A stretch of 64,000 nucleotides of DNA from Chrysomallon squamiferum. Taxonomy: Eukaryota > Animalia > Mollusca. This document shows positions 18,543-64,000 of this stretch, piece by piece. The stretch's first letter is position 1; every line of letters begins with the position of its first letter. Under the pieces are notes generated by a model. It worked only from the letters and a program-made list of their open reading frames with translations, did not search any database and was not told where the DNA came from. The position numbers and the translations under genes are program-made. Location of the stretch: the NCBI GenBank assembly GCA_012295275.1, contig CM022672.1, positions 27,466,001-27,530,000 of the forward strand, given 5' to 3'.

Positions 18543-25465
<6,923 letters not shown>

Positions 25466-29972: not shown

Positions 29973-33624
<3,652 letters not shown>

Positions 33625-38850: not shown

Positions 38851-40862
38851 AATATTATTTTAAATTCTTCTCCAGTAGATTAAGTGTTTGTGATTATTTC
38901 AATATAAATAATTAATTATCAAAAACGGAAAATTTGTATCGATTTTGAATAAATGTTCATATCTGATGAAATTTCGGTATCATTTATAAAAACAATTATT
39001 TAATTCACTGTGTAATTTATGTTAGTATGTTCTCTGAGAAAAAATAAACTAAAAATGAACACAATATTGAAGATGCACTGATTTTTTAATTGCTTTTATT
39101 GATTTTAGCAAACACCCAGGCAATAGTTTAGTGACAAAAATTGAATATGAAAAGCTGTTGGATAAACAATTACTTTTGCCTAATTTTGTCTTATTTGTCT
39201 GTTTGGACATATATGCGTAACACAAATTTTATTTTGCAGACAAGCTAACCTTTCCATTCCATTATTAGGACTATTGTCACAATTAAAAGACTGATAATAC
39301 AGTGATATTTTTGTTAAAGTACTGTATTGGTTAGACAATTTTTTATTAAAAGTTACATATATAGATAATTATTTAGTCTCCTCTTAAATGAATTTATTAA
39401 TTTTTAAACACATAAATTCAATCAGATAGGTCTCTTTCTCAAACAGTGAAAAGTGCCAGTATGAACAGTGTCAGTGAAAATTTGATCAAATATGTACTTA
39501 TTTTGTGCATCTTCTGTTAATAACTGTTTATTACAGTAACATTGTAACACTGTCACTGTCAGATGAACATTTCACAACATTTTAGTTGTCCTGTATTATA
39601 AAGTTTTGTAGAAGCTTTTGTTAAAATTTACAATGTAATAGTGTCAGATGAAATTTAGATAAATTTGTACTTGTATGTGCGTGTGGTAAGTTAAAACCAC
39701 AATTTTTATTTTTTAAATTTATATATTTACTTATTATTATTTTGACATTTCATCTGTTTTAATTTTTTTTTTTTTTTTAAAAATAAAAGTCAGAAGTGAA
39801 TTAGTTTAATTTATTTTATTTATTTTTATTATTTATTACACATACATATTTTTTTTTTTTTTTTTTTGTTGTATATCTGGCAAACACTATAAATAGTGGC
39901 AATATTGATGGCTGTGAAGCAGGTCCCAGACGTGCTTCACAACAGCTTGCTCTGATTAGCACCTTAATTTTTTTCCTATTCCTATTCCTATGGCTAGATA
40001 CAGTTCTGTATTTTTGGTCACTGATGTTTGAGACCTATTTTATTTTTGAAAAGTAATTGTCACACTTTAAGAAAAAAACAAAAACAAACACAAAAATAAA
40101 TGAATCAAAGTATTGGTCTATTTTTATAAAACAGTTGTTATCACTCTTACAGTAAAGACATGAACCCAGTTAGGGTTTTCTTTGATCAGCACACTGTCAG
40201 TTAATACAGATCAACACTGTCAGATATCTGCTAGTATGTTTGAGATTACAAGCTCTGTAGTCATGTCACTGTTTTTTTGATTGTAAATGTTTCTCATTTC
40301 CTTTAACAAACCTGAATGTAATAAAGTTGCATTCTGTTTATTAAAATGGTCATTTTTATAAAAACAATCATCCCCATTTTATTATTATTAATTTTTTTTT
40401 AAAGTAGAAATTAGACAATGGTTGGTTAATGGATTAAAAGATGAAGGTTACTAATTACAGTAAAAATGTCATATTGTCCCTTTCACACATATTCAGATTA
40501 AAAAAATATATATATAAAAATAACAGCATATTGCTACTAGTTGGGTATAATGAAAGAGGTTTTTTTTTTTTTTTTTTTTTTAAATTATTATTTTAAAAAT
40601 ATTTTATTACGTTTATGTTGGAATTACATAGATTTATTATTATTATTATTATTTTTGTTTTCATTGAAAATTTTAAAGATAAGTTGAGGAACATTTATCT
40701 ATTTTGTAAATGCAGGAGGGAAGAGATAATTTATTTATATCCGGTAGTAGAAAAGAAGAATAAAAGATATGTCTTTTTTCAGTTAAAAAAACAATATAAA
40801 CAAATTTGTTATATTTTAAATTACTTTATTTGTTTTCAGATTAATTCTTAAAAAGTGGCATC

Positions 40863-41460
40863 ATGCTGGAGAAGCAGTATTCTGTCAAGTTCTTTTCGTC
40901 CTTCATTGAGGCCATACAAAAAGTATGTCGTGATTTTCTTGATTTTGAACAAGGTGTTGAACTCAGTGGCTATCTGGCTGTGGAAATAGATAACATAAAA
41001 AAGGAGAGATATGTTCTTAGTGAATTCATACAAAGCTCGGGTAATGTCATCAGTGAAAGTTTCTGCACAAAAGCATTCAAAACAGTTCCCAAAAGCTCAC
41101 TGACATCAGAACACCGTGTTTTAAAAGAGCACAATGCTAGTCCAAGCACAGACTTGATGGACAGTTATGGACAAGAACAGGCAGCAATAAATCGCAGAAC
41201 GTATCTTCCTGGAGGTTATTCTTCCAGTCAGAGACATTCCAGTTTTCAGAACACACGCTCCAGTCACTCATCACAGTCTCATTCTCAAATACAACCCAGA
41301 CAATCAACTTCATGGGGAACTTCAGCAGAAACATCTCAGCAAAACATATCGAACAGAAGTTCTTTTCATGGCTCTCCAATCCGTTCCAGTTTTGAATCTA
41401 ATGAGAGAGGATTTAAAAGAAATGCTACAGATTCAGAAGGTTCTCCATCCATAAAATTAG
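40863..41460 (+). CDS. Constant exon 1 of multi-isoform DNA-binding protein gene: unnamed ~75-aa N-terminal globular domain + Ser-rich linker
   Basis: Acceptor ttttcag at 40839, ATG 40863, ORF MLEKQYSVKFFSSFIEAIQKVCRDFLDFEQGVELSGYLAVEIDNIKKERYVLSEFI..., donor TTAG|gtaaaa at 41460 (phase 1). Confidence 0.85.
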
Positions 41461-41834
41461 GTAAAATTAATTTAGTTATTATACCAAAACAAAAGAAATT
41501 CTGTGCAACTCTTTTAATAATTTACTTGGGATTATGCCACTGAAATTTTATTATTATACATATTTAAAAGATTTATTAAAAAAATATTGACAAAAATTAA
41601 TTTAATGTTTTCTACCCAAAAGTTTATGTATATCATATAAATTTAAAAAAAAATATATCAAGTCACTATTACTAGGTTAAAATCTAGGTTAGGTTGAGCA
41701 TGTTTTTTTATTTTAAAGATAAAACATTTGACAAAGATAAGCATTGCAGAAGTAATATCTTTAATTTCAGATTGCCAGTCTGAGTCTTGTTTGTTTTTAA
41801 AAATGAAAACCTGTTAATACTGTTTCATTTACAG

Positions 41835-42202
41835 CACGATCTGGTTCAGCAGATCCTCCGTCAGGTAGCACATCAACAATAGCTTCAGAAACACACTCGA
41901 ACCCTGAATATTCACAAACAGCACAGTCTGGTGGTGAAGAGAGTGTTCATTTACCATTGGCAGCAAAAGTTAAAGAAGAGGAAGATGATGACGATGATAT
42001 CACTTTGATTGAAAACATTAGTGACTTTAATAAAGGTGATGGAGGCTCTGGTGGTTACACTGGTGACTCTGGTGGTTACGCTGGTGACTCTGGTGGTTAT
42101 ACTGGTGACTTTTCAGATATTTTGCAAAATGAGGGTGCCGGAACTTCACAAAATGTTTACATGCAGTTATCAACATCAGGAGAAAAAGTGGAACTTTTTA
42201 AG
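41835..42202 (+). CDS. Constant exon 2: acidic/Gly-rich linker (VKEE, DDDDDITLIE, 3x SGGY[T/A]GD), ends in phase-0 donor
   Basis: Acceptor tttacag at 41834, phase 1 matches the previous exon, open for 368 nt, donor AAG|gtattt at 42202. Constant part totals 322 aa. Confidence 0.85.
42046..42110 (+). repeat. 21-bp coding tandem repeat x3 (ctctggtggtta[c/t][a/g]ctggtga)
   Basis: Seen directly; encodes SGGYTGD/SGGYAGD/SGGYTGD. Confidence 0.9.
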
Positions 42203-45200
42203 GTATTTATTATGTTTTCATTATTTTTTTGTCCTCTTGTTTTATACATTCTAAGAAATAAATCTTTCTGGATGATAAACGCTACATTTTCAGATTTTCT
42301 TCAGCAGTTATTTCATTGTGTTTTTTTTTTTTCACTTATATAGTAAATAATAAAATTACATAATCCGATTGATTATTCCTTTGAAATGTTTCCATAACAT
42401 GAAATTATTTTCTGCAAGAATGTTTTTCTGACAATGAAAATAACTTAAAATATTTTTTTATTTTTAGACATATATGATTTATGTCGGTAAAAAATCGGCT
42501 TATTATTTCAGTATACTTGTGACAGACTTGTATTTGAACATATATATATATATATAAAAACCAAGCAAATAATAATAATAATAATATAAAAGCAGTATCC
42601 AGAAAGGTTTATTTTTTAAATATTTTAACACTGAATAAATTTTAGTATTTGTTTTGTTTTTGTTGTTCTTTTGCTCAATTTTTTAATCTTAGACAAAAAT
42701 AAGGAAAAAACTTCCCACTTTGAGAAGCTTTTCCGGAATATAATTTTTTTCAGGAGAATTGCTGCATTGATTTAGTGGCTAAAAGTAAAAAATAAAAACT
42801 GAAAAACACTAGTCTCAACTGTAATGAAATAATAACTTTTTAAAACTTGCTTTAGTTATTAAAGGAAATCATGTTTTTCTAGAAGTTTGCGTTGATGAGC
42901 AAAGTATTTATTATTAGATGTGAAACATTTGCTGTGAAAGTACAGTTAGAAAAAGCAAAGTGTGCTGGAGCTAGAACAGCATTAAAATATTACTTTTATA
43001 TGCTTAAAAATTAAACTGTCAAGACCTTTGATATAGCAATTTGTAAAATATGTTTTGTAGTCATGATTTAGATTTTACCTTCACATAACAATTTATTATA
43101 TTTAGCACTTTGTTGAAAATGCAAGATACAATTGATTATGAAAAAAAAATAGCCTGTGAACTTACATTATTTTTACATGACACTGATATCCATTTCTTCC
43201 TTGTTTCAAATGTCATCTCTAGATTTTTATGCATTTGTTGAAGGAATTATAAAAAGTAAACCGTCAATGTGTACAGTTTGGTAATATTTATATGTAATAT
43301 TGTTTAATGATTCACAAAAGTTCTTAATCTCTTTGGACTTTGTCTTGTTTACAGTTTGATACTTTGCTTTAATAGCTAACATAATGAATATTCATGGTAC
43401 ATTTGTAAATGTTGGTGTGTGTAAATACATCATTAAAAACAAAAGAATCCCATTTTATGAAACAAGCAAGGCTTTTTCTTATCAGTGTGGTCCTTAAGTT
43501 TACATATATAACTGTTCTAAGTATAGAATTAACAAAACATTTCTTTTAGCCATGAGACCATTTTGTTTTTGTATTTGACGTTAATTAGGTAAATTATGTT
43601 AATTGATTAATACTGATGAAAAAGAAAAAAATATGCATGAAATAAAGTCAACAACAACAAAATAATATTTAAAATAAATGAAATGAATAATAATAAAAAA
43701 ATTAAATAGAATAATATTAAAAAAAAATAATTAATAGAATTAGTAAGTTAAATAAAAGCTTAAAAAAAAAAAAACAGTAAAAATAAATTCAAAACATTAG
43801 TAATAGTACATTATTTTAATAAAAAACAGTTGTTAAACGTTAGCTATTTTGGAGTTAATGCTCAAAATATTTTAGTTCATGAAAGGAAACCATATGTATA
43901 TTTGTATTTAATACAACTGATTTTATTAGGTTTTTTTTGTTATTTTGTGTGTGCAATAAATTCCATGAATGGCAACCCTGGACTATCAGACCCATTAACT
44001 GGGTACCATTAACCCACTAACTGGTTTTGATTTTGTTTTTGAAATTCAGTTCTTTACTTTGTTTCTTGCTGTACTTTGTAAACAAAGTAAATGATCAGAT
44101 TGATAAAAGATACAATTCAAATGAATTAGTATGTACATAAAAGAAAAGAAGACAGTATGTACATGATTATCTATTTTTGGATTTCCAAACTTGGCAGAAT
44201 GTAATCGGTCCATGCAGAATGTTAATTGCACTAGATGCACCATACAGAATAATAAATAAAATCCCAAACACAATTTCAAATGATAAACAAAAAAGTACTC
44301 AGTTTTCTAACTTAATGTCCAGTAATGTGTAAACATTAAGTTGCATTTAACAGCAGTTAGTTTGACACAATTTTTTATTTGTAGGCAGAATACAAACACA
44401 AGTTAACTACAAATGTTTTTTGAAGACTGCCTGTAATTAATATATTATGTAAAGATTCCCTATGCTATGTACAGACTAAGGACTGAGTCAGTCGTATTTT
44501 GTTCTACTTAATCAACAACCTATTGTTCAGTAATTACAAAAGGTAACAGCAAATTGACCATTCCAGTCTTTTGCGTTTCAGAAGGCTAATTTATATTAAA
44601 TCAGTAGTCAGGGACTTTGAAAAATAGAGGTTTTGAGTTACTGATGTTTGAAACATATCACCACTAAAATAAAGAATTTAACCAACTGTCTTTTAATTCC
44701 AAAAAGCAACAGAAGAATCCTTGACAATACTAAATTTGAAATTTTATTAATTAACCTTATTTTTTTCGGGGGGGTGGGGAAGAAATTGCCTAAGTTTCAG
44801 GACTCTAGTCATAGCAGTGCTCAGCACACAATATATAAAATAAATTAAAGGTAATTTAACATTTTTGTTTTGTTTGTGTTTGTTTTGTTTTTGTGTTTGT
44901 TTAAAGCATATTTGTTAAATTGATACTAATTTTTAATATTGTCAGAAGATGTACTTTGAATATGGTTTGTTTTGTAAGCTGTACTTTGGAATTGGTTCTT
45001 TGTTTCTATAGATTATAATGATTACTGCATTTTGGAATTAGTGTGTAGATTTCTTTCATGGAAATAGATATCGTCATTGCAGTTAACACGGAAATAAATG
45101 ATTTGCTTGTTTTTAAACTAATTATGAACATGTATTGTTATATTTTCATTAATAACATGTAATATAAATTCATGTACTTTAAAAACCAGTTCAAAGATTT

Positions 45201-46611
45201 TCTGTGGTTTTTTTTTTATTCGATCTAAATTTCTTAATGACATTGTCATTTGTGTTACTTCATCCAGTTGAGTGTACTCAAAGATGTTAGTGCTTGATAA
45301 GTCATAGTGTATGTTCCTAGTTTATAGTACATTCCATTTTACTGTTTAAATTGATCTTATCATTCAGGAGATGGAATTCTTTACTAACTATTGATAACAT
45401 TAAGAAAGTGTGTCATAAAATTGTTATGTTCTGGCTTTAACACTGTCTATTTTTAAAATAATTCATGTCATGGTCTAGAATGTGTTGATCAGTAAATAAA
45501 ATTTAATATAGATTTACATTTACAGGTTATGTTTTTATCATTATTAGTTTTAAATTGTTATATATAAAAACAGAATGTTGTGAGTAATGTTTGTTGAATG
45601 CATTCTGTCATGTGAGCATTATTCCACAAAATCATTGAACACAAATCACTAAAATTTCTTCCAGTGTATTTTTTAGCTATGTATTAGAAAAACCATGTTA
45701 ATGAAACAAATCTGTATCAAACTTTTAATTTATTTTTATTTGTTATTTATGTTCTATTCATAGTCTTTGTAAAAGAATTTACTGTAAAATATCATTAAAG
45801 GGTTTCAACAAAGTTGCTATATTTTGTCAGTTAAAAATAATTCTTATTTAATTTTATGAATGGGAATTCACTGAACAATGTAATGTGTAATATTTATTTA
45901 AAACATATGAAAATAAAATGTGGAGTTCACACAGAAACCAAGATAACCTTCTAGTAGCCAGGCATATAATGATTCAGATCATGCAGAAATTTACTTTATA
46001 ACTTAAAAAAATGAAAACTGAAAAAAGTGATTAAAACTCAGGAAATTATTATTTGACAGCATAATGGCTCAAAATCATTGACCACTCAGGAATAGAACAT
46101 TTTAAATACAGCTGCAAACTGCACACTGTCAAGAAACTGACAGAAACTTCCTCCTTTAATTAATCATATTCATAAGAGTGGTTTGGATGACAGCTTACAG
46201 ATGCCTGTTTTGATTACAGAGGCAGGTGATACATGTTATGTGCAGTGTACATACAAATGGTACATGCATGTTCTTTATTTATAGCAGTGCATTGATAGGA
46301 ATCTACATTAAACTACATTTTATGATACTTTCGGTTGTTAATATATTATTTGAATATAAATATGCATACTGGTTCAACTAAAACATTACACTACACTATA
46401 GGCCCCCCAGACACACACATGTATTTTGTGACTTTATCGTTAAGATTGTACATAAACTGGCCAGTGTTTGATAATTTTGTTTTTAAATAATGTTACAATA
46501 TTCATAAATGTAAAAATAAACAGCATTCAAAATAGTTTTTTATCAAGGATCTGTTCTGTTCATTAAAATTAATACTTCATGTTGTGGTATACAGGCTTTT
46601 CTAATAATGTT

Positions 46612-46648
<37 letters not shown>

Positions 46649-46841
46649 AGAAATGAAAGAAAAATGGATACAGCTGTGATAAAAAGTAAAACTACGAATA
46701 ACATCAGTTTATTATTACTAATTAAAAATGGGTATTTTTTTTCTGGATTCACTGGATGTTTATATAATGTACAAACTGAATGCTGAAATAATTTACAATT
46801 CAGTTTCTATATGGATTGTATATTTCTCTCCCTTTGTTTAG

Positions 46842-47063
46842 ACTCAACGAATGAAAACATACACTCAATCAGCCTTTAAAGAAGCTATGCACTCTGTCCT
46901 GCAAGAAGGAATGTCACTGAGAAAGGCAGCCAAACTGTACAATATTCCTCACCAGACTCTTTGGAATCACGTCAGTGGCAAACATAAGAAATACAGAGAT
47001 GAAATTCAAGCATTACAATTTTATGGAGCACCTAACCCTCTAGCGAGGGAGATGAAACCATGA
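46842..47063 (+). CDS. Alternative terminal exon 1: Pipsqueak-type HTH domain
   Basis: Pyrimidine tract + tttag at 46841, phase 0; TQRMKTYTQSAFKEAMHSVLQEGMSLRKAAKLYNIPHQTLWNHVSGKHKK...MKP*; fits the Psq consensus Y-x6-A-x3-V-x3-GMSLRKAA-x2-Y-x-IP-x2-TL. Confidence 0.85.
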   Translation, partial: TQRMKTYTQSAFKEAMHSVLQEGMSLRKAAKLYNIPHQTLWNHVSGKHKKYRDEIQALQFYGAPNPLAREMKP

Positions 47064-48859
47064 TGATTTAATTTTGAAGTGGAACTTCCAAATTTTTATT
47101 GAAACAGATTTATTATTATTAGCTATATAAATTTTTGTTTTGTTTTGTTTTGTTATCATAATATAAATCTCAGAGATAGCTAAATTTGTTCATAAAACAG
47201 TCCAATAGATGCTAGCAAAACTTGTCAATGAAGTATTGTCTGATTTCAAAGGTGTCAGAATAAAATGACAGCATTAAAACTTAAGGCATTTTTTATTATG
47301 TCCTCTTTACTTACCTTAATATATTAATTAATACTTTAAAAAAAAAACCTGTTGATCATGTTTTGACAGTCTTTTTATAAATCAATAGTGTTTTGGGGAG
47401 ATTCAGTTATTTTTAAAGATACTTTAACTTTACATCACATGAATAAATTGAAAGTAACTTTTTAAGTTGTTCATGTTACAATTATGTATCGCAACTGGAC
47501 ATATTGCATAAGCTGCAAACATACATAAACTGTTTACTATAATCTTCCATTTTGAGGATCAGGGCATTGACTGGAAATGTATTTGATTTTAAGTACTGTT
47601 TCTAGATGACCCTATTCAGTTACTTTTCAGTTGAGCCATGTGACTGGATAACTGAAGTATTACATTTGTTTTCCTCTATATATGATAAGACATGTGAAAA
47701 TATTTGAACAAGCCTTGAAACTAGATGAAAAGTGGCAGCACATTAAATATTCTCTGCTTGAAAATGGCTTGGGTATTTATGGGTGCCAGTCTTGAATGAG
47801 CCTAATCAAGTATGAACAGTTTTGTATCATATTGAAAAACCCAGCATTTACACTGAAGCTCATTAAATGCTCGCTTTTCTTAGATCTACAGAACATGTTG
47901 CCACATAAAATAAAAATATGTTGACTTGAGTAGCAAAAACTGTTGAGGTGACATTTAATCTTTTTCCTTCTTTGAATATTGTTACTTCTTTTTCATTTGT
48001 AGTACAACAGCAAATGGTGCACATTTCATATGAATTCATATAGAATTGGCCATTTTCTAAAAAAGAAAAAAAAACACCGACAATAATGTTCAGATACTGT
48101 TGTATGATTTAAACTAGAGTTAAATATACACACAAATACATTAACACAAAGTACTGATACCATAATTAAAAGCATTAAATAAAGGAAAGGAAAAATAAAT
48201 CTACTAACCGCTTTTCTCTGTAGTTTGTATTAGTGATAAAAAAACCAAAAAAAAAAAAAAAAAAAAAATTTTTTTATTTGGCATACATATGTTTTGTATG
48301 GATTATACAAAATGTAATATAAATATCTTTGTCATTTTACTGTGATAGGAGTTTCATGGATCAGGCCTCAGTGGAATATTTGAAATGTTTTCATTTTATC
48401 AAAGAATCTTGCTGATTAAGACTAATTTTATCTTTTAACTGTTGTGGCTTCCTATCATTTTTTCAGCATGATAAAAAATTTTGTCTTTAGTTTAATATTT
48501 TAATTAACATTCCCCTGACAAATTATATGTACTGTTTATAATGTTTACTGAACATTTTAAAGCAGGCATACATTGGTAATGGTTTATAGAATTATTCTCT
48601 TTTGTTTTTGAGGATTCCTTATTTTTTTTTATGATTCATTTGAACACAATGCAGTGTTGTCATTTTTAAAAAAACTAAAAATAATGACCCTTATATTTAC
48701 ATATACTTCACATATTATATTGTAATACTGCATTAATAAATAACAGGTGTTACTGACTGATATTATGAAGTGTTAACACCAGATAGGATTCAGACTTTTT
48801 TTTTAAATAAAAGATTTATTAAACGGTATCTCTGAAATAATGTTTCTCTCTCTACCTAG

Positions 48860-49090
48860 GCTCATCCAAAGAAAGCCTATACCCAATCAGCATTTAATGA
48901 GGCCCTGCGCTCTGTCACCGAATGTGGTATTTCCATCCGAAAGGCGGGCAGAATGTACAATATCCCTCACCAGACTCTTCATGATCATATCCGTGGAAAG
49001 CGTAAGAAACAAAGAGAAGAAGTCCCTCTCTCGATGGTTCCTGAGCAGCGTTGCTCATATGAAAGTAAAGATGTCCATGTTGCTGAATAA
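48860..49090 (+). CDS. Alternative terminal exon 2: Pipsqueak-type HTH domain
   Basis: tttctctctctacctag acceptor at 48859, phase 0; AHPKKAYTQSAFNEALRSVTECGISIRKAGRMYNIPHQTLHDHIRGKRKK...HVAE*. The ORF track shows a different, spurious frame here. Confidence 0.85.
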   Translation, partial: AHPKKAYTQSAFNEALRSVTECGISIRKAGRMYNIPHQTLHDHIRGKRKKQREEVPLSMVPEQRCSYESKDVHVAE

Positions 49091-51917
49091 TCTGAACATC
49101 TGTCATGAATTATACAGACTGATGATAATTGTTTTTTCTAAAACTAAAAAAAAAAAAAAAAATGGCCTAGTTGATGGTTCATGCAGCTTCATGATAATTG
49201 ATAGTTAACTAATTTCCCTGTCTAGATATTTTAATCATGTCAATCATTTTCTTGGTATTCAGACAAGAAATCCTAAAGGTGATGATAATGAAATCTGTTT
49301 CTTGGCTAGATTATGTTCTAGAAAATGTAATGGAAAAGTGGTCAGTCATTTGGGTAAATATGGAAAAGATAAATTCTAGTAATTTATTTTTCTTTTAATA
49401 CTAATAAGATTAACTGTTGGATATAACATTGCAGTCTCTTTATAGATTAATATAAACCTTTGAACTGAAGCCAATTTATTAAAATTATATTTCTTTCATT
49501 TATTTTATTCGATTTTATTTTATTTTCCATCATATTTTTCTGAGACCTGGGATCATTTCCAGGCATAAATTAGATACAGTTTTCAGTATACTGCAATATA
49601 TTGTAATTTGTTTGCTGAAGTGTCATTAAATAAATCATTTCAAAGCAGGCTTAGATATATTTCACACAAAATTATCAAAATATTATTAATACATATATTT
49701 TTTTAAATAAGTATCAAGTGAAACTTTTTAAAGCAAAAATTTCAACAATGTTTTTGAAAGAGTGTTGATGATGGTTGTTATGTTCTTTCTCTTTTTTTTC
49801 TTTTTCTTTTTTTTCTTTATTATTTTTTGTTTGTTTTGTTTTGTTGTTTTTGCATTCTGAGACTAACATGAAAATATATCTTTGTTTACTCCTTCAGTAT
49901 AATTTGTAATTTGTTGTTCAGTCTGATGCAGTTTGAAGGTTTATTTTTTCCTATGTATTGTTTTAAAATACCAGAATATATATATATTTGCCAAAACAAA
50001 TAATAATAGGAATCCTAGTGGTGGTTGTATTTCTTTGTTGTTGCTAGTTGTAAAATGTAAGCAAAATCACGGTATACATGAATATGATGACCAAGTTATT
50101 TTGTTATGTACTGTGAAATATTCATTGTAATGGTTGTTGAGTTGTTTTGAGTAAGAACTGCTGGGATCTTACGCAGTCAGCTGTATAATAGCCAACACTG
50201 CTGATGAAAATTACTAACATGTTGAAGCATATAACTCAGATTAGTTTAATGTTGCTCTCAAACACTGTTCAAAATCAAATTTAAAAAATGTTGTTTTAGA
50301 TTGTAGCCTAATTTATATACTGGTGAAATGTATTTGTACATAATTAAAGTGTTAAGTGTTTCTTTTATTATTGTTACTGTTTTATAACTTACTGTACAGA
50401 TTCTGATTTTATTTAATTTGATCTGTGTTATTTATTAATGACATTAACATTTTTGAGTACAGTCATACCTCAGTTCTTCCGAAGAATTAATGTAGATTGG
50501 GTTAATCCATTCCTGATCCCCCAAAATTAAAGTAATTTAATAAAAATATTGCTTATATACCTGCGTAATAATAGTGACATGCATAAAATCACAACAGAAA
50601 CTATAAACACAGTAAATAGATGAAATAAATGAAGATGTAACTGCACTTTACCTGTACTAATCAGAGTCTATAGCATGAGTGGAAGGTGGAGAGAAAAGTG
50701 GAGAGGGAGAAAGATGTTACTGTTTGGAATGGGAATTACCTTGCATAAAAGCATCAGGTAATTTTCCTTGTGGGGTTTTATCTTTTCTCTGCCTTTGCAC
50801 CACTACAAGCTGCTTGAGATTCACTGAACTTCATTTTCACTAAAGACCTGTCTAATGAGGTTTGTCACTACTGTTTAAAAATGTTCATGAAGTAAGAAAG
50901 ATGCTGCATTGTTTACTGAAAAAGTTTATGGTATGGTTTGTTACAACTTTGTCAGTTGTCACAAAACATTGCAACTCTCCCCATTTTCCAGACATTTCTT
51001 TAATTAGTGATTTAGAAACATACTCAAAATAACACATTTCTCTTTCTGTCTTTGACAGTTGATACCTTTATTTTTTTCAAACATGTTGGAGAAGGGAGTT
51101 ATGTGAGAACCTAAGTATCACTCTGCATTTTAAGTTTAAATAACATTTTTTTTTTAAAAACTTTAAAAAAAAAAAAAAATATTCGGTTTTATACAACTTC
51201 AGTTTTGGAGTAATTCCAAGATATTATTGTTTATTTTGTTAATTATTTTTCTAATTTTTGTTAACATTTGGATATTTAATGAACAAATAATGCACATGTA
51301 ACTGCACACACATTTTATCATATCATTAAAATTTTATTTATTTATTTTTTATTTTTATAACTTGCTCCTATAACAGTTCAGAATTATTTTGTGATAAGTA
51401 ATGTATAAAATCAGTTAATACATCCCTGTAGTTATTTGCTACAGTTGGCAATACTGTGGAAAATATTTGCCATTACTATTTAAAGAATATTGGTTTGTTT
51501 ATTTTTGAATTAAATGTGTGACTCGTCAGTTTAACATATAATCATAATAATGGTATGCATGATTTGTTGTATTTTCATTGTTGTGCATCACTAAAAAATA
51601 AAAAAATGTGTTTTTAATAAATTCAGTAATTTTACTTTGCTTTGTTTTTTATTATTTTATTATGACATACATTATGTTTACATTTTAATATGATAGTGAT
51701 TCAGTATTATACTGAGAGAGAAATGATGTCTTAATGTAATACCTAAAATAAGAAACAGAAGAAAGACTGAAAAAAAGAAAAAATACAAATAATTTGCCAA
51801 AATATTTACAGTGTGAAATTCTTTTAAGAATTATTTGCCCCATTTATGGCAGCCATTTTCTTAGCAAGTTTGTAGGTTAAGTGGATTTTTCTAAGACATG
51901 TTCATTTTTCTATATAG

Positions 51918-52112
51918 GCATGTGGGATCCAGCCAACACGAAAAAGGATGCAGTATTCACAGCTGGATCTCAGTGCTGCCCTCAAAGCAATAATGGATGA
52001 AGGGATGTCACTACGCAAGGCAGGAACAATCTATAACATACCTTTCCAAACTCTGCATTTTCATGTGAAACGAAATCGTGAATCCCAGGTTTTGAAAAAA
52101 ATGTTACAATAA
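51918..52112 (+). CDS. Alternative terminal exon 3: Pipsqueak-type HTH domain
   Basis: tttttctatatag acceptor at 51917, phase 0; ACGIQPTRKRMQYSQLDLSAALKAIMDEGMSLRKAGTIYNIPFQTLHFHVKRNRESQVLKKMLQ*. Confidence 0.85.
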   Translation, partial: ACGIQPTRKRMQYSQLDLSAALKAIMDEGMSLRKAGTIYNIPFQTLHFHVKRNRESQVLKKMLQ

Positions 52113-54254
52113 ATGGCAGTGAGAGTTGACAAAAGTATGATGCACTTTCTGTTGCTTTGAAAACTGTTTGCTGCTGGAATGGATTCATTAGTACCATAAA
52201 TGTATAGAGATGGTCTATACAAAAGAAGTTACTTTAATATTATGCTGCAGTTGCTTTGAAATTATCTAGCAGAAAGCATGTATTCAAACATAATAAAAAA
52301 TGGCAGGTGCTATTTGTAATTCAATAAATCTTGTATATAGTTTGTATTGTCCTAAAACATATATGCTTGAGTGAGTTTTGCAATACTGTGTGAATAATAA
52401 TAAAATAACAACTTTTCACAAAAGCAGTGGCTGTTGGTAATATATACCAGACATTGCATTTGTTCGTTTTGCTAGAATTGATTTATATTTTCAACAGTAT
52501 ATGATACTTGTATTAGATGTAGCAGATACATTAATTAATTAAATGATGGCAAGTACCAGATTAATAAATTAGAAATGGGGAACATTTAAAACCGCGGAAT
52601 AGCATTTCAATTTTAATATTATGGTATCTTGATAACATTTAAACTTAATAGATTATACTAGCTAATATTCAAATTTTATAAATGGACATGTATGTTTAAA
52701 TATTATTATTATTGATTTATTAATTTTTTTTATTTTTATTTTTTTGTAAATTCTACTCAGATATAAAGATTATATTTCATATAAGACTTTTTTTATTTTA
52801 ATTTACTTATTTATTAGGTTGTTCTCAAATCACACTTGTACATTTGTTTGAAAACCTATATTTTACTTAGCAAGGACATAGTTTTCTGTTTTTGTTCTTA
52901 ATGGAGTAACATGGACTACATGTTTAAATAATAATTAATCTGTTTTTGCAAAATGCATATTTGTACAGATTGCCGAGTTTTATGATCATGTATATAACTG
53001 AAAAATACTGAAAGATTTGATAAGACATTACTGGTAAAAATTGATTTGTATTAATTTACATTCAATTATTAACTAATAAAGATGTTTTGAAAACAAATTT
53101 CTTAATTGGCAGATATAAAAACGTACAGATTCTGCAAAGGTTATGCTTTAAAATATTTAACACTGAATAAAAGATTTCTTTTATTTATTTTGTTTTTCAT
53201 GATTATCCAAAAACTTTTCATTAGCTGATTATGCCAATTATGAATATTTTTGATATTATTTCAGAATCAAAATCTTTCAGAAGAATTTAAATGATCTTTT
53301 TATTTATATTTTGTAGTTTAGGTTGTTTTATTGTACCCAAAAAAGAATTTGCCTGTAACTGCAAATCAAGCAATAATATATGCTTACTATTATGACCATG
53401 AAGTAATAAAGATATCTTTAAGTTTATTTATATTTTCTGTTTATATGCACAAACACACACACAACTTGTTTTATTTTATTTTCTTCTGTTATTATTAATA
53501 GCCAATATAATTTTTAAGTATAACCAGATGCAGTATAAAATGCACTAAACTTAGAAAGATTACCTTAGCTCCAGTTGTTGTTAACTTTGGAATCAACAAT
53601 AGAAGTGTTGAGGCAAAGTTGCTAATATCAGCTGGTAAAAGTTAAATATTGTTTTCTGTTAAAAATACATACATAGGTTTCAACAGGTTGCTTGTTATTT
53701 ATTAAGAAGCAGCAGCAATGTTAAAGGATTTGTGAACTACCCTTAAATATTGCAATCTGTGATAATAAAATCAATGAATGCAAACAACAAATATTAAGTT
53801 GAACATGATGTAATCACTCCTGTCAATCTATTTTTCCTGTAAGGTCATTAAAGTAAAATGCTGTTACTATCATTCTGTTACAGACTTCATTAATAGGTCA
53901 AAGGCTTAAAATGATGTCACTAGATATATCCTTTAAAAAAGATTTCTTTCCAGACTTATTAATGATTACAAAAGTCATGGTCACAACACTTAAACTGTAA
54001 ATGTATGCGTGTATTTTGGCTTTTCAGTTGTTGCTCAAAGCCTCTGATGTCGTCAGACCAATTATTTAAAAATGAGGAAAGATTATTATATTTTTTTTAT
54101 TTTTTTTATTTTAATACATTTATGATAACTTAAGAGAATAATTGTTTTCTTGACTTTGTTTAGATGTTTTATGTGACCATAAACAACAACATTACAACAC
54201 ATTTTGTGATCTCTATTCACAAATCCTTAAGACTGTTCCTTTCTCTATACTTAG

Positions 54255-54458
54255 GCACAAGAATTTTACACACCTAGAAAACGGCTGCAGTACTCACAGA
54301 TGGACCTCAATGCAGCTCTGAAGTCAGTTGAAGAAAATGGAATGTCCCTTCGCAAAGCTGGTACCACCTACAATGTGCCATTTTCAACACTGCACTTCCA
54401 TATCAAACGTAACCGTAAAACTGATAAGGGAAAAATCAAACAGGTTGAAGACACTTGA
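54255..54458 (+). CDS. Alternative terminal exon 4: Pipsqueak-type HTH domain
   Basis: ttctctatacttag acceptor at 54254, phase 0; AQEFYTPRKRLQYSQMDLNAALKSVEENGMSLRKAGTTYNVPFSTLHFHIKRNRKTDKGKIKQVEDT*. Confidence 0.85.
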   Translation, partial: AQEFYTPRKRLQYSQMDLNAALKSVEENGMSLRKAGTTYNVPFSTLHFHIKRNRKTDKGKIKQVEDT

Positions 54459-56916
54459 AAGTTGCAGAGCAGTTGCTGCAGAATCTTATTTAAAAACAAA
54501 AAAAAGACACCCATAGTTAGATACTTGTCCAGTCTTTAGAGTATTGTGCTGATAAAAAAAAAAAAAATTTAATAATGACTTTTCTGTCATGTACATTGTT
54601 TACTTATGCTAATACATTAAGTTCTGTTTATTCTTTTTTTTTTTTTTTTTTTTTTTTTTTCAACTCTGTGGTATTTTCATGATGATTTGAAGGAAATATT
54701 TCAGCAGTTACAGAACTTTGTCAAAAACAAGACACTGTGAACTTTGATATTGTTTATAGTTCTGTAAAGTGCAGACTTTAATTTATAATTAATTTGCTTG
54801 GATTCAGTTTGAATTATTTCTTATGTTAATTAGTTGTAATCAGAATAAAAACAGTATTAGACTGATCATCGTGTTACTGTAAAATAATTATGATAAAATA
54901 TATGAACCTGAAGTCAGTTATACAGTACAAAAGGTGTTTCCCAGCTGGCATTTTATAAATCCAGGGATAGTTATACAGGTAAAAGACGCCTTGATCACTA
55001 TTCCATGATGTTTAGTAACTAGTCCAGTGTGGAAAAAAAGAAGATAAAAAAACAAAATATTTCCCCTTGCTCTTTTGAAGTGCATTAGTGTCAAAAACAG
55101 CTAATTTCCAAGAGGCTGGTATCAGGAAATAATTAATAGCTTAGTAATTTACATGTGGAAAACTGATATGTCATCTTACAAGGTAATATTTTGAATTATT
55201 ATGTATTTGGTGAAAAACAGCTGGGAAAAGAGTTTATTATAACTAAACAATACCTTTTGAATTTTAAATTAGAATTAACATTATTTTGATTGTTGGTTCA
55301 TTATTTCTAAATGAAAGATTAATGTTTCTTTTCTTTATTGTAATCTCATTTTTTCTTCTTCTCCATCTGTTTTGTTTTTGTCTGGTTTAATGTTAAATAT
55401 TTTCTCCCAACAACCTTTTTAACTTGATTGAACTTAAGTAGCAAAATAAATAAAAGTACTGTTGATGGGTTCTTCAAGAATGTGGACATGTTGCTTTAGT
55501 TATGTTGAAAACTGATGTGTTTCTTGTAGTAATAGACATTTTGAGATGCCAAATATTTGTTCACAGAAGGCTGAAAGATAAACTAAATTTTATATTACAG
55601 TTATCATGTCAGTTTTTATATTACATGTAAAATGTTAATGTCAGTTCTAAATAAAATTAATAATGAATAACATTTTTTAAAGTGTATTTTGTTTGAAATA
55701 ACCCATATTATATTGCATACACTAAAATACACAAATTAGTAAACAGTTCATTAAAAATGATTGAAATCTAAACAAAAACGGTATACTGTAAATAAAATGG
55801 CTGCTTAGACTTCAAATGTGATGCTTCCACCAATTCAAGAAAAAAAATAGTAGATGAAAACATGCTAAGACAGACCAGATATTCTGTTATAACTTAGTAC
55901 TGTGACTGCTAATGAAGTCAAAATCAGGACTGTTCTGAAGATAAGCAAGAACACATGAGAAAGTATTTTTGGTGGGTTTTTAGTATTAATAAATTCTGTA
56001 GAAAATGAAAGAAATCAAATGTAAATATTATAAATATTTCTCATAGATTAACATGGAAAAAATGCTTCAAATTTCAAAATAGGCAGAGAGTATATGAACT
56101 GAAATACAGAATAGAGAATTCTTATTCTATTACTTTTTATTTTACAATTTTTTTTTAGATATTGAGGCAATATGCTCATAGTACTAATTTAAGAATATAT
56201 CTTGGCACTATACTATATATAATCGGGGAAAAAAGAAAAAAGAGAAAAACTATTACTTTTTGCATCCTGTAATAGTATTCTTATCCTTAAAATACTTTGC
56301 TTATTTTAAAAATATATGGAAACTATCGTTATTTATTCATGTAGTGGTTTAAGACCTATGATGAAATTTGTACTTTTTGATTTACAAGCAGCATTGACCT
56401 TACTGGTTTTGTATTACATTTGTATTTCTTACATCACTAACACTATCCATTTTAAGTTTAAATTGGTTATTATTTTTCCAGGTATGTCTGGAAGAGAACA
56501 TATGAATGTGGAATATATAAAAGTCTGATTTCCTAATTTTAATAATTTCAACTTCCATTTTGATAAATTGTCCCCAGTACATACTGGTACTTTTTAAAAA
56601 TATCACTAACATTGAAATATTTAAAGTGTGTATGAAAATTCAAGAAACTGTTATTAATTTCTTCATTGATTATTAGTCATTTTGCGTTTGTGTATGTGTA
56701 TGGTATGTACCTAAATGAAAATAAAATGTGCATCTTAAATATTTTAAGTCTGTCTTAAATGTTTGTTTTAGTGATTTATTTAATTTATTTATTTATTTAT
56801 TTATTTATTATATTTTTTTAAAAGTAAGGAATTTCCTCAGAAGGTTAAGGTTAATTCTGTTAAAGGTGAACCATTTCAATATTTTTTTTAAGTTTCATTT
56901 TGTTTATTATTTTCAG

Positions 56917-57178
56917 GGTTCTTCAATTCTTGGAAGTGACCCAGAACTAGCAGGAAAATTCCCTACTGTTTTAGTTGACAAAGATGGTCTGTTAGAAGCG
57001 GAAAGAAGAGCTGTTTTCAGTCGTGATCCACCAAGTGCTTTGCTCAACCTTGTCATAGACCTTGTGTTCACTCCAGTGGAGTTGGCTAATTCAACAGGAC
57101 TGGGGATCAAACCACGGAGAAGTGGAGCAGATCCCAACAAGCAGCCCCTTGATCCTGTCAAAGTGGACGCCATTAAAG
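56917..57178 (+). CDS. Alternative exon 5: N-terminal ~3/4 of a BEN DNA-binding domain
   Basis: ttattttcag acceptor at 56916, phase 0; ...PPSALLNLVIDLVFTPVELANSTGLGIKPRRSGADPNKQPLDPVKVDAIK, matching the BEN pattern L-x2-LF-x3-L-x2-S-x2-G...LDP-x-K-x2-AIK; likely donor AAAG|gtttgt at 57178 (phase 1). The completing exon was not found. Confidence 0.75.
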
Positions 57179-58614
57179 GTTTGTTTCTTACTTGTTTTCC
57201 TCCATGACAGTCAGATTTATCACACCAATGCCATCTGGTTTATTTATGCATTTACAAGGATTTAAAAAAATAAAAATAATTAATAATAAATAAATAATAA
57301 TAATAATAATTAAATGAAGATGTTAAATAAATACAAAAAATATAAATGTGAATCAACATTAAATACACTTTTCCTGACATAATATATCCTTTAAAAATTT
57401 ATTTGGATTAATTTTTGAGAAAGATATAGTAATCCAATATTTTAGTCCAGCCAGACATACATTAATAAGAGTAGCCACATTTATGTAAGTGCAGATGTAC
57501 AACATATTTGGGTTTTTTTATTTTTTATTACAAATGTAGTTGGTGTCAGAGATTTTTAAACAAATGTTTTAACTAAAATAACACTGTATTAATTTATTGG
57601 GTAAATGATACAGTGATAACTAGTTTCAGTCATTTCACTGTAATTTATTATTAATTTAATTTATTTATTTATTGAAATGAGAAAGAAGAAAACAATTATA
57701 TTAATATCTGTGGGTCTGCAAGTTTAGTTTAATTTTAAAAATGCATTGGTCTAGTTCATAAGAAGTTACTGCAAAATTTACAAATAAATAATACTACTTA
57801 CATTATTGTGAGGATTTTAGAATATTTTTATTTTTATATTTTTTTCATTTTTTTTTTATTTTGGCTTAGCTTGACAGTAAGAATTTTATTACTTAAATTG
57901 TTCAGTCATTATTTGCATTTTTAAAATAACTTATTAATAATAACTAGTCCTTTATTAATGATGTTAAAGTACCATAACTAAATAAGTGACAAATGATAAA
58001 ATTTAAAAAGGAATCTGCACTTGAAATGACACATTGATAATGCTTGAAAATTTGTTAAGAATGCTACAAGTAAAACGTTTATTTTTGGCTTCTTTTTTCC
58101 TTTTTGTATATATATTTAAGAAGTTAAATTTGCATATGATAGTTTTCATGAATTAAGTAATTAAGAAACAGAATGATTCAAATAAAATGCAGTGTAGAAA
58201 TGCCTCTAGTCATATTTCTAAATGGTTAAATTAAGTAATTTATTTGCACTGATCAGCATAATAAATGGATGAAACCTTTGGACATTCATCAATTAGATTG
58301 TTTGTATAAAATTTGGCTGATTAATTCATTGTTAGTCAGATTTTCACTGGTTTACTTTAAGATAAAACAATGCAAAGAGGTTATGAACATTTTAAATGTA
58401 TTTTTAAAAAATAATTATTAACAATTACACTCAAAAAATTAAGAAAATAAATCAAAGTTTTAAAATTTCAAGTGTCATAAGATGACAGTTTTACTTTGTG
58501 ATTATGTGAGGCTGAAGGTTAGGAAAAAAAAAAGTATTCTAATTAATATTTAATATCCTGCCAGTTATAAAAATCCACTTACATGAAGACTTCTTAAATT
58601 TTTATTTATTTAAT

Positions 58615-61700: not shown

Positions 61701-64000
61701 TTTAAATTTTTCATTCATATTATAGTGATAGTATGTTCCACATGATTTGAATTATCATGACTGTTAGACATAGTATCATTTTTTAAGTAGTGGCTAAAGA
61801 TTTTGTTTAATGCCTGTGATGGAAATACAAAAAGAATGAAAACATTCAAATTTAGCAAGTCCTTCCTCATTACATAGCAAATGTTTTGCATATAATAATC
61901 CTTTTTCAAAAAGAAATACCATGGATAAGAAGGAGGTTATTGATAGTGTAGTTTGAATAAATTATCTGTACAGGATTTCAGCTGCAAGAAAAGATGTTTA
62001 TACACTAATTACATTGTCTGCTCGAACACAATTTTGTCAGTCTCTTGTCTCTTACACCAAGAATAATTTGAAAATAAGGGAACATGTTTGAAGATTCAGT
62101 AAACTATCTACTTCACCTCTTCTGACAGTTATATTTCACTGGATCAGTTGAATCATCAGTACTGTAGTTTTATTTCAGTGAATATTCAGCTGTGTAGATT
62201 TGGTGTCTGGTAACACTGATACCTGTTTAAAACTGTAATATGTATCATATTTCATTTTGGTTTGTCTTGTAGAATTCCATCACACTGAGAGCAATGATAA
62301 TATTCAGAATTCTGTTTGTTCTTATGATAATACGGATAGTATGAATTGTAATACAAGTTCTACGTCAAAATAACATGTTTGTCATTGGTTCCAAGTGAAT
62401 TGCTGTAAGTTAATAAAACAAACATGACTAAAGTGAAAGAAATATTAATTTTAAAAAAAGCTGGAACGTTAATAAGCAAGCTGCTGGCAAAATTTACAAC
62501 AGCAAATACTAAATCTTTTCTGATGATTAAGAAGATTGTAACATTTTACTGTTTCTTTACTAAATGAAAAATGTATATTAGTCACTTTTGTAATATTACT
62601 CCAGTGAACATTTGTCTTTGCCTTGACACAGTCAGCCATGAACTGAAGGTTCCTGTTTTTAAAATTAGAATGTTCACAGCTGAAGTTATCTGATGATAAT
62701 TTTTGTGTATTAAATTTTATTTCTGAGATTAGCTCAAATTAATGAAAATGTTTTGATTATGTAGGTGGCACTATGTTTTGATCAGGCCTACAAGTGATTA
62801 TGTGAAAGAACTTTACAGTGTAATTGCCCATGATGTTTATATTTGCCTCAAATGTATATGTTTGTAACCTTTTTTCTATTATAATGTAGCATTTCTTTTC
62901 AGCAGTTCAATAGCTTTATATTCTGAAGTGATTAATACCATTACTCTTCAAATACACTTCTTAATATTAATAAGTGTAATTAGACAAAATAAATTGAAAT
63001 GCATACGTATACATGTATGCACATGCACATCAGCCAATTCATTTTCATCTCATCTATTCACATTTCTGGGCTTGAACACATTCACATTTGTCATTTAATT
63101 CAATATTTCTTTACTATAGCCATTTGTAATATTGTACTACTAATAAAATAATGTTGACCAAAAATACAAATTAGTTTAAACAGACAAAATGATTATATTC
63201 TTATTATGTTTCTTTATTTTGTTGATATCTTATTTTTATGTGTTTTTATTGGAGAGGGGTTTGAGAATCTTGTACAAATACCTGAAAAAAAATAATAACT
63301 GGAGGGAACTTGCGTGTCTGTATTTTGTCAAAATCAGTGTTTCACCACTGGTAATTCTGATGGTGGTAATTATGACACTGTTTGATTTATTTGTTCATGC
63401 TGCTCTTCTTGTTGGTGATAACTGCAAGGTTCTTTATTAATTTTGTTCAAAGAAAATGGTATCAGTGGCTTTGGTGGATTATTTAGTAATCTATAATGCT
63501 TTGGAAACACTGAAGGCATGGATTAACATATTAGATAATCTATGATGAATTATTATTATTATGTCATCTTGATTATTTAAAAAAAAAAAAAAAATGTTGA
63601 ATCCATCAGTCTGTGGGGATAAAGTTGTCTTAAGACTTTGTGTTTCTATAACATATAGTTTGTGTGTGAATAATTGTTAAACAGAACACACACATACAAA
63701 AATGAAAATTAATATCTTTGTTAATTAGATGTAAGAAAAGACTAACAATATTTATTTTCATACTGAGAAAATATTGTAAAAGCTGTTTGAACCTAATTGT
63801 TTTGCATCTTCTTCCTTGGTGTACCTAAATGGAATTACAGGAGGCAAAAAAACCCAACAACAACAACAATAACAATAATTAAATAATAAATAAAACCATA
63901 TATGATTGTTTTTAATAACATGCTATATCTGGCTATTTATCTCAGAACGATTTACAGAACTTTACTGTTTCATATAATACATGTATAGAAATACGAGTAT

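Follow-up and report, generated by a model that had tools for sequence, protein, structure and literature searches.

Evidence for a gastropod gene that splices one constant head to alternative exons for predicted DNA-binding ends

We describe here a gene on the forward strand of a 64,000-nucleotide (nt) stretch of DNA from the mollusc Chrysomallon squamiferum (assembly GCA_012295275.1, contig CM022672.1, positions 27,466,001 to 27,530,000; this whole stretch is referred to below as the window, and positions are counted from its first letter). With a probability that we put at about 0.87, this is one gastropod gene in which the last constant exon is spliced, likely in cis, to alternative exons, giving predicted transcription factors that have a common head and differ in their predicted DNA-binding ends. 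The locus is real, expressed and conserved, and is a member of a large family.

The gene lies within the 64-kb window on the + strand, and its two constant coding exons (40863-41460 and 41835-42202, with canonical GT-AG sites) form an open frame of 322 amino acids (aa) that ends in phase 0 at the donor at position 42202. The alignment with the orthologue from Gigantopelta aegis begins at Met1 of the window product, and a non-coding exon upstream of 40840 is implied. The last constant exon encodes a linker rich in Ser, Gly and acidic residues, which is predicted to be disordered, as indicated by low predicted local distance difference test (pLDDT) values in the model of the orthologous G. aegis linker. 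This exon also contains a Gly-rich short tandem repeat (~42040-42110, + strand), with ~15 residues that are absent from the G. aegis orthologue. Five variable islands follow, opening at 46842, 48860, 51918, 54255 and 56917, all of them (5/5) with a YAG acceptor in phase 0, for which the chance expectation is roughly (1/3)^5 = 0.004. In each of the five, the acceptor AG has the top pyrimidine fraction among the AGs up to 150 nt upstream of the domain core, with one tie, which is also in phase 0. The G+C content is 0.40-0.47 in the exons vs 0.20-0.30 in the 500-nt flanks, and when 152 homologous tails were compared to both strands of the window, the only strong matches were these five islands (E <= 6e-24, with the next at 0.0035). 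An earlier reading of the letters alone (hereafter the sequence-only reading) had proposed the two constant exons with their phase-0 donor, the five islands at polypyrimidine-AG acceptors in phase 0, and four helix-turn-helix (HTH) exons each ending in its own stop; the open frame with its canonical sites, the acceptors at all five islands, and the translations, which give products of 395, 398, 386, and 389 aa, bear this out.

Evidence that these exons are joined comes from RNA. Five public sequencing runs contain part of the stretch, four of which are RNA, all from one study, and their assembled contigs were mapped on the last constant exon only. Two of the four RNA runs (X1 and X3) gave two contigs each on this exon, and each of the four begins with the last 30-31 nt of the exon and exits at donor 42202, with none entering the intron; their destinations are 46842, 56917 (twice), and 51918. 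In RNA run X3, the loose ends read from 46842 onward (28/28 letters) and from 56917 onward (30/30 letters), each being unique in the window, and donor 42202 thus joins 46842 and 56917. In RNA run X1, the two contigs are merged in one consensus, of which the combination of 56917 (long contig) and 51918 (short contig) explains 30/30 letters, compared to 27 letters for the same pair reversed and at most 20 for every other pair among the 12 ordered acceptor pairs considered. Taken together, the exact joins to 46842 and 56917 and the decoded join to 51918 indicate that donor 42202 is used with three acceptors.

The orthologue agrees with this picture. The closest named relative of the gene is G. 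aegis LOC121383032, the head of which is identical at 77/78 residues, and for which 16 RefSeq isoforms (X1-X16) were retrieved. A stretch of 314 aa is common to all 16, ending at the same junction, after which four isoforms continue into HTH tails that match the window exons one to one, and 12 continue via the BEN half-exon described below (11 with different full second halves, and one with five residues). The earlier proposal of a constant head with alternative tails of DNA-binding type is thus upheld both by the RNA joins and by the 16 orthologue isoforms.

All four HTH exons (A to D, Table 1) pass the Pfam cut-off for HTH_psq (PF05225), with 41.5-51.5 bits vs 20.4. By identical core residues, the G. 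aegis counterpart of exon A is isoform X13 (36/48), that of exon B is X1 (44/48), and that of exon C is X16 (40/48), with exon D being closest to X14 (36/48), such that a window HTH exon shares 36-44/48 residues with its own G. aegis tail vs 19-32/48 with any sister exon. Exons A and B show 71% DNA identity across 182 nt, acceptor included, and codon third positions are the most divergent in 6/6 HTH exon pairs, which points to tandem duplication followed by purifying selection; judged from its sequence, exon B is a tandem duplicate of exon A. A different account would have the BEN path or one tail alone functional, with the HTH islands being remnants of pogo/Tc5-type transposons or splicing noise. 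Pogo transposases are indeed the source of Psq-type HTHs (10.1101/2022.12.18.520930), and the RNA contigs reach two HTH exons and miss the other two, those that do reach one being 57-58 nt long. We nevertheless consider this account very improbable, as an intact counterpart of every island exists in G. aegis and the divergence is third-position-biased. Moreover, Pfam finds no DDE or Tc5 domain and no second HTH in the HTH islands, the stop following directly after the single HTH, and among the 25 longest of 1153 inverted pairs no terminal inverted repeats were found, these being A/T-rich low-complexity runs. A Dscam-like docking/selector pair was likewise not found among the 20 repeat families and 25 inverted pairs displayed.

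The fifth island, at 56917-57178, encodes half of a BEN (PF10523) domain, scoring 14.3 bits, which is below the Pfam cut-off of 23.2, and provides, by prediction, helices 1-3 together with the beginning of helix 4. The description of the array as four Psq-type HTH exons plus BEN therefore stands for the HTH exons and has to be amended for the BEN half-exon, which is an internal shared exon, and neither a complete domain nor a last exon. What the sequence-only reading missed is that this exon gives access to a second tier of alternatives, and that the gene belongs to a clustered family. In C. squamiferum, the second tier would be expected past position 64000. In G. aegis, the first residue of the second-tier part is D, V, E, or G in 12/12 cases, fitting a phase-1 G, and the 11 full second halves show a mean identity of 31% across 34 aa (range 15-53%). 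In the model of G. aegis isoform X11, the BEN part has five helices, with the junction falling within helix 4 and helix 5 lying entirely in the variable exon; we note that only this part of the full-length model was used, the head being poorly modeled (pLDDT mostly < 50, from an alignment of 15 near-identical rows). The top 13 rows of a Foldseek search with the X11 BEN part are all BEN domains, at a probability of 0.90-1.00. Furthermore, a paralogous BEN isoform aligns to NACC1 (E 0.003), and the residues matching NACC1 D462 and T465 differ among the BEN isoforms. Among the helices of BEN, helix 5 alone lies in the major groove in the solved structures of human BEN-DNA complexes (PMC11472053; PMC8887127). 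The position of helix 5 in the variable exon, its base-reading role in those structures, and the variability at the D462 and T465 positions make it likely that the purpose of the second tier would be to swap DNA specificity on a fixed BEN scaffold. In the paralogue LOC121383526, the BEN domain is split at the same residue, with at least 3 second halves, such that the second tier likely predates the duplication that separated LOC121383032 from LOC121383526. As a separate observation, when the BEN half-exon is read into the intron (57179-57207, + strand), a stop follows after 9 residues, to give a 418-aa product that has no recognition helix, and G. aegis isoform X15 likewise ends five residues past the BEN half-exon.

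Several points have to be weighed against this reading. The join to 51918 is one that we infer, as it was decoded from a merged consensus, and no join from 42202 to 48860 or 54255 is present among the contigs of the four RNA runs; of the five junctions that had been put forward for checking, two are thus found exactly, one by decoding, and two are not seen. RNA runs X2 and X4 gave no contig on the last constant exon, and the body of that exon is without contig cover, neither of which is evidence of absence. The contigs come from a single study and carry no strand, level, 3' ends, or silent control stretch. The two contigs joined to HTH exons are short (57-58 nt), and the two that bear the BEN half-exon extend ~170-280 nt past it, into either a further exon or the intron. 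Exon B contains one donor-like site, and while poly(A) hexamers occur 3' of the HTH stops, they are common in such AT-rich DNA. The RefSeq isoforms of the orthologue are automated models. In the case of the BEN path, a profile of second halves found no BEN second-half exon within the 64-kb window, the best Foldseek E value for the X11 BEN part is 0.0076, with none reaching 0.001, and the BEN Pfam cut-off is reached by 6/14 spliced isoforms, BEN being the sole match in 14/14.

Taking these points into account, we propose a mechanism in which one pre-mRNA would be made and donor 42202 would pair with one of the five acceptors. Each HTH exon would act as a last exon, splicing to which would compete with skipping, and cleavage would occur in its own 3' untranslated region. 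Skipping of all four HTH exons would lead to the BEN half-exon and from there to one of about eleven second halves, exchanging the major-groove helix (as is annotated in G. aegis and predicted here). The tails may read different DNA sites, and we infer different DNA specificities for them, as had been proposed, from the sequences of the domains; the insulator-like role put forward in the sequence-only reading would be one possible function. By analogy with fly lola and mod(mdg4), we lean toward the head being a self-association or cofactor module that would do the job performed there by BTB. The array itself is likely to have grown by tandem exon duplication together with capture of transposase-type DNA-binding modules, and the transposase-type tails found elsewhere in the family fit with repeated capture of mobile-element domains (10.1101/2022.12.18.520930; PMC3212892).

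In this mechanism, cis-splicing is sufficient because all exons are collinear on one strand. The same products could also be made by trans-splicing, as in mod(mdg4), with variable exons that have their own promoters being joined to a separately terminated head transcript. The layout is the same as that of lola and mod(mdg4), which do trans-splice (PMC4387717; PMC6237743), and junction contigs cannot separate cis from trans. We consider this route unlikely, however, as the five exons all lie downstream on the same strand, and the search with 152 tails found no tail-like exon on the minus strand. In addition, trans-splicing in the fly uses an intronic U1-binding TSA motif (PMC4387717), whereas the intron at 42203-46841 contains no exact TSA-type core and one 1-mismatch match on the + strand. 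Across the window, the TSA motif is below chance (48 vs 69 expected), which is a weak argument, as the fly motif need not be conserved.

The head comprises ~75 residues and is conserved, and none of 19 head sequences scores above any Pfam cut-off. Over 78 aa, it is modeled as one helix and four strands, with a mean pLDDT of 86.6. No relative was found among the sequences of solved structures, and the ESM Atlas gave no usable head match. In the fold search, nothing reached E <= 0.001 or Z >= 8, and such lists exclude no family, nor do they show a new fold; the best Foldseek E value is 0.054 in PDB and 0.011 in viral models, and the best Z score is 5.4, for a pseudopilin (root-mean-square deviation 3.1 across 68 residues), which is within the range of common arrangements. 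The claim that the locus is without BTB is in agreement with both the predicted head structure and Pfam, which gives no BTB match for the exon-1 product or for 19/19 head sequences at E <= 1. If the head were instead a highly diverged and trimmed BTB, the locus would be a distant homologue of the insect BTB loci and not convergent with them. The head does occupy the same N-terminal position, the tail classes are the same (C2H2, Psq, BEN, and FLYWCH), and fold searches are unable to exclude a family. Such a history is, in our view, extremely improbable, considering that 0/19 heads match the BTB model even at E <= 1, and that the head, with its ~75 aa, single helix, and four strands, compares poorly to the 100-120 aa, five helices, and three strands of BTB (PMC11426971).

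A full HMMER search with the head gave 91 representatives, in nearly all of which the match is N-terminal, with C2H2, HTH_psq, Tc5-type HTH, FLYWCH, zf-Tnp_2, and DUF3504 domains found C-terminal of it. In G. aegis, there are at least 10 head-bearing loci, all on one 91.7-megabase (Mb) contig, six of which have at least 16, 13, 13, 13, 15, and 15 distinct C-termini, or at least 85 in all. Arrays are also found in Aplysia (at least 18 and 14 tails), Physella (at least 16 and 7, with isoform numbers up to X37), and Biomphalaria (at least 11), with annotated isoform numbers of X30 in Littorina and X26 in Pomacea. The suggestion that this is a lophotrochozoan version goes beyond what was observed, since arrays were seen in gastropods only, two bivalve matches (Solemya and Sinanodonta) are proteins with a head and DUF3504, and there is no named head match outside Mollusca, many matches being unnamed. 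A search aimed at non-gastropod relatives of the head returned 7 proteins, of which the 6 named ones are all gastropod, and in a profile search of the head the named ones among the best 120 of 297 matches are all gastropod, with other phyla being possible. A tree of 129 distinct heads and that of the window (FastTree, midpoint root, 78 aa; heads < 60 aa and 7/334 proteins that gave no head match were left out) separates two subfamilies, both with array loci, and is too weak for the order of events.

Head genes often carry adjacent locus numbers on the same contig (LOC121383525/6, LOC112564034/5, LOC124284552/4, LOC124149198/9, and LOC131934880/2), which suggests that they form tandem clusters; the first three of these each pair a DUF3504 gene with a multi-isoform gene. 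Many of the tails in Aplysia, Physella, and Biomphalaria belong to an extended type of zinc finger that is marked by a conserved Trp and, at the C-terminal end, an Asp-Pro motif, mostly with no precomputed Pfam match, and are possibly an unnamed finger family, while certain tails are predicted to be Arg-rich helices, have no match in Pfam, and are a possible further DNA-binding type. Nested choices occur at other loci too, with tails that have a common first part and then diverge, and six cassette pairs look, by eye, one-to-one conserved between Biomphalaria and Physella.

Of the known systems, the locus is most readily compared to mod(mdg4), with at least 30 isoforms, and lola, with 20 (PMC11426971); in both of these, constant 5' exons are spliced to a 3' exon chosen from many alternatives, every one of which carries a domain of DNA-binding type (PMC6237743; PMC13490949). 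The snail locus differs from these in having an unnamed ~75-aa head and no BTB, in being gastropod and not arthropod, in combining several tail classes with a nested tier that splits one BEN domain, and in having many paralogous array loci, which in G. aegis are on one contig. As the defining BTB is lacking, the locus works like lola and mod(mdg4) but stands outside that family. With the BEN factors (NACC1/2, BANP, BEND3, Insensitive, and Elba1/Bsg25A), it shares the five-helix fold and the C-terminal major-groove helix, NACC1 and Bsg25A being the best sequence and fold matches of the snail BEN; in contrast to these, the snail BEN takes its first half from a shared exon and its recognition helix from whichever alternative exon is joined to it. 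In the available text of PMC8887127 and PMC11472053, a helix swap by splicing is not described for BEN factors, and the term "alternative splicing" occurs 0 times in that of PMC8887127.

As in the Psq-type HTH proteins, the 4/4 snail HTH exons belong to family PF05225, the difference being that the snail locus provides one HTH per isoform, from alternative exons. Independent Psq expansions have been reported in Aplysia and Biomphalaria in a survey that counts genes, and in the main text of which the word "isoform" occurs 0 times (10.1101/2022.12.18.520930). Finally, many head-bearing relatives end in DUF3504, the domain of Crypton-derived genes such as KIAA1958, ZMYM, and KCTD1, and the vertebrate gene KIAA1958 carries two DUF3504 exons as alternatives (PMC3212892). 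In contrast, there is no DUF3504 among the five variable exons of the window locus, and the available text of that source gives no description of the head (PMC3212892). Searching by title or abstract start, we found no published description of the system, with subscription journals mostly outside the scope of the search; the supplementary transcription-factor tables of the Aplysia survey may include these genes. The sequences are already public as automated RefSeq isoforms. We could not find a description of two features, namely the head family, which has no name, and the nested swapping of the BEN recognition helix.

The coordinates of the exons and of the head domain are collected in Table 1. 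Elsewhere in the window, exons of a MYST-family histone acetyltransferase lie at 19498-24788 (+ strand; zf-MYST E 1.5e-7, MOZ_SAS E 6.9e-14, and a weak zf-C2HC), with a domain order that points to KAT7/HBO1. At 32232-32726 (- strand) there is a 165-aa open frame with coding-like composition and a weak Pfam match to RUBC_PIKBD (E 0.034), which is probably one exon of a gene oriented divergently to the array gene.

Table 1. Positions of the constant and variable exons of the array gene, and of its head domain, in the window
Feature	Position	Strand	Remarks
First coding exon	40840..41460	+	Acceptor AG before 40840; ATG 40863; GT phase-1 donor after 41460
Head domain, unnamed, N-terminal (aa 1-78)	40863..41096	+	Predicted one long helix and four strands
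Last constant exon	41835..42202	+	AG acceptor; GT phase-0 donor common to the variable exons
Exon A, Psq-type HTH, 73 aa, own stop	46842..47063	+	Pfam 7.9e-14; RNA join seen
Exon B, Psq-type HTH, 76 aa, own stop	48860..49090	+	Pfam 7.4e-11; G. aegis counterpart
Exon C, Psq-type HTH, 64 aa, own stop	51918..52112	+	Pfam 2.2e-12; RNA join decoded
Exon D, Psq-type HTH, 67 aa, own stop	54255..54458	+	Pfam 1.1e-10; G. aegis counterpart
Shared BEN first-half exon	56917..57178	+	Phase-1 donor; RNA joins; 85/87 aa identical to G. aegis

A constant head with variable tails is familiar from insect BTB genes, which govern neural wiring, chromatin insulation, and sex-specific development, and it is likely that snails evolved their own version of this fly-gene design. 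The isoforms concerned are listed in RefSeq as "uncharacterized" or are misnamed, for example as "zinc finger and BTB domain-containing", and mollusc transcription-factor counts may need revisiting. The split BEN domain amounts to a natural set of eleven recognition helices carried by one scaffold, making a BEN recognition code directly testable. More broadly, and at what we judge to be just short of even odds, molluscs and perhaps other lophotrochozoans may possess an undescribed family of chromosomally clustered transcription factors whose basis is a new fold that self-associates, with 10-40 cassettes per locus, some of them in two tiers that swap only the BEN recognition helix, and with shared heads that assemble the products combinatorially. 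If this were true, a small number of such loci would account, through their isoforms, for much of the "zinc-finger gene" catalogue of snails, and the family would be an independently evolved counterpart of the insect BTB system. That a constant-head/variable-tail design occurs on an unrelated domain, at many loci across gastropods, with the model snails Aplysia and Biomphalaria among them, suggests a general way in which DNA-binding repertoires can be expanded.

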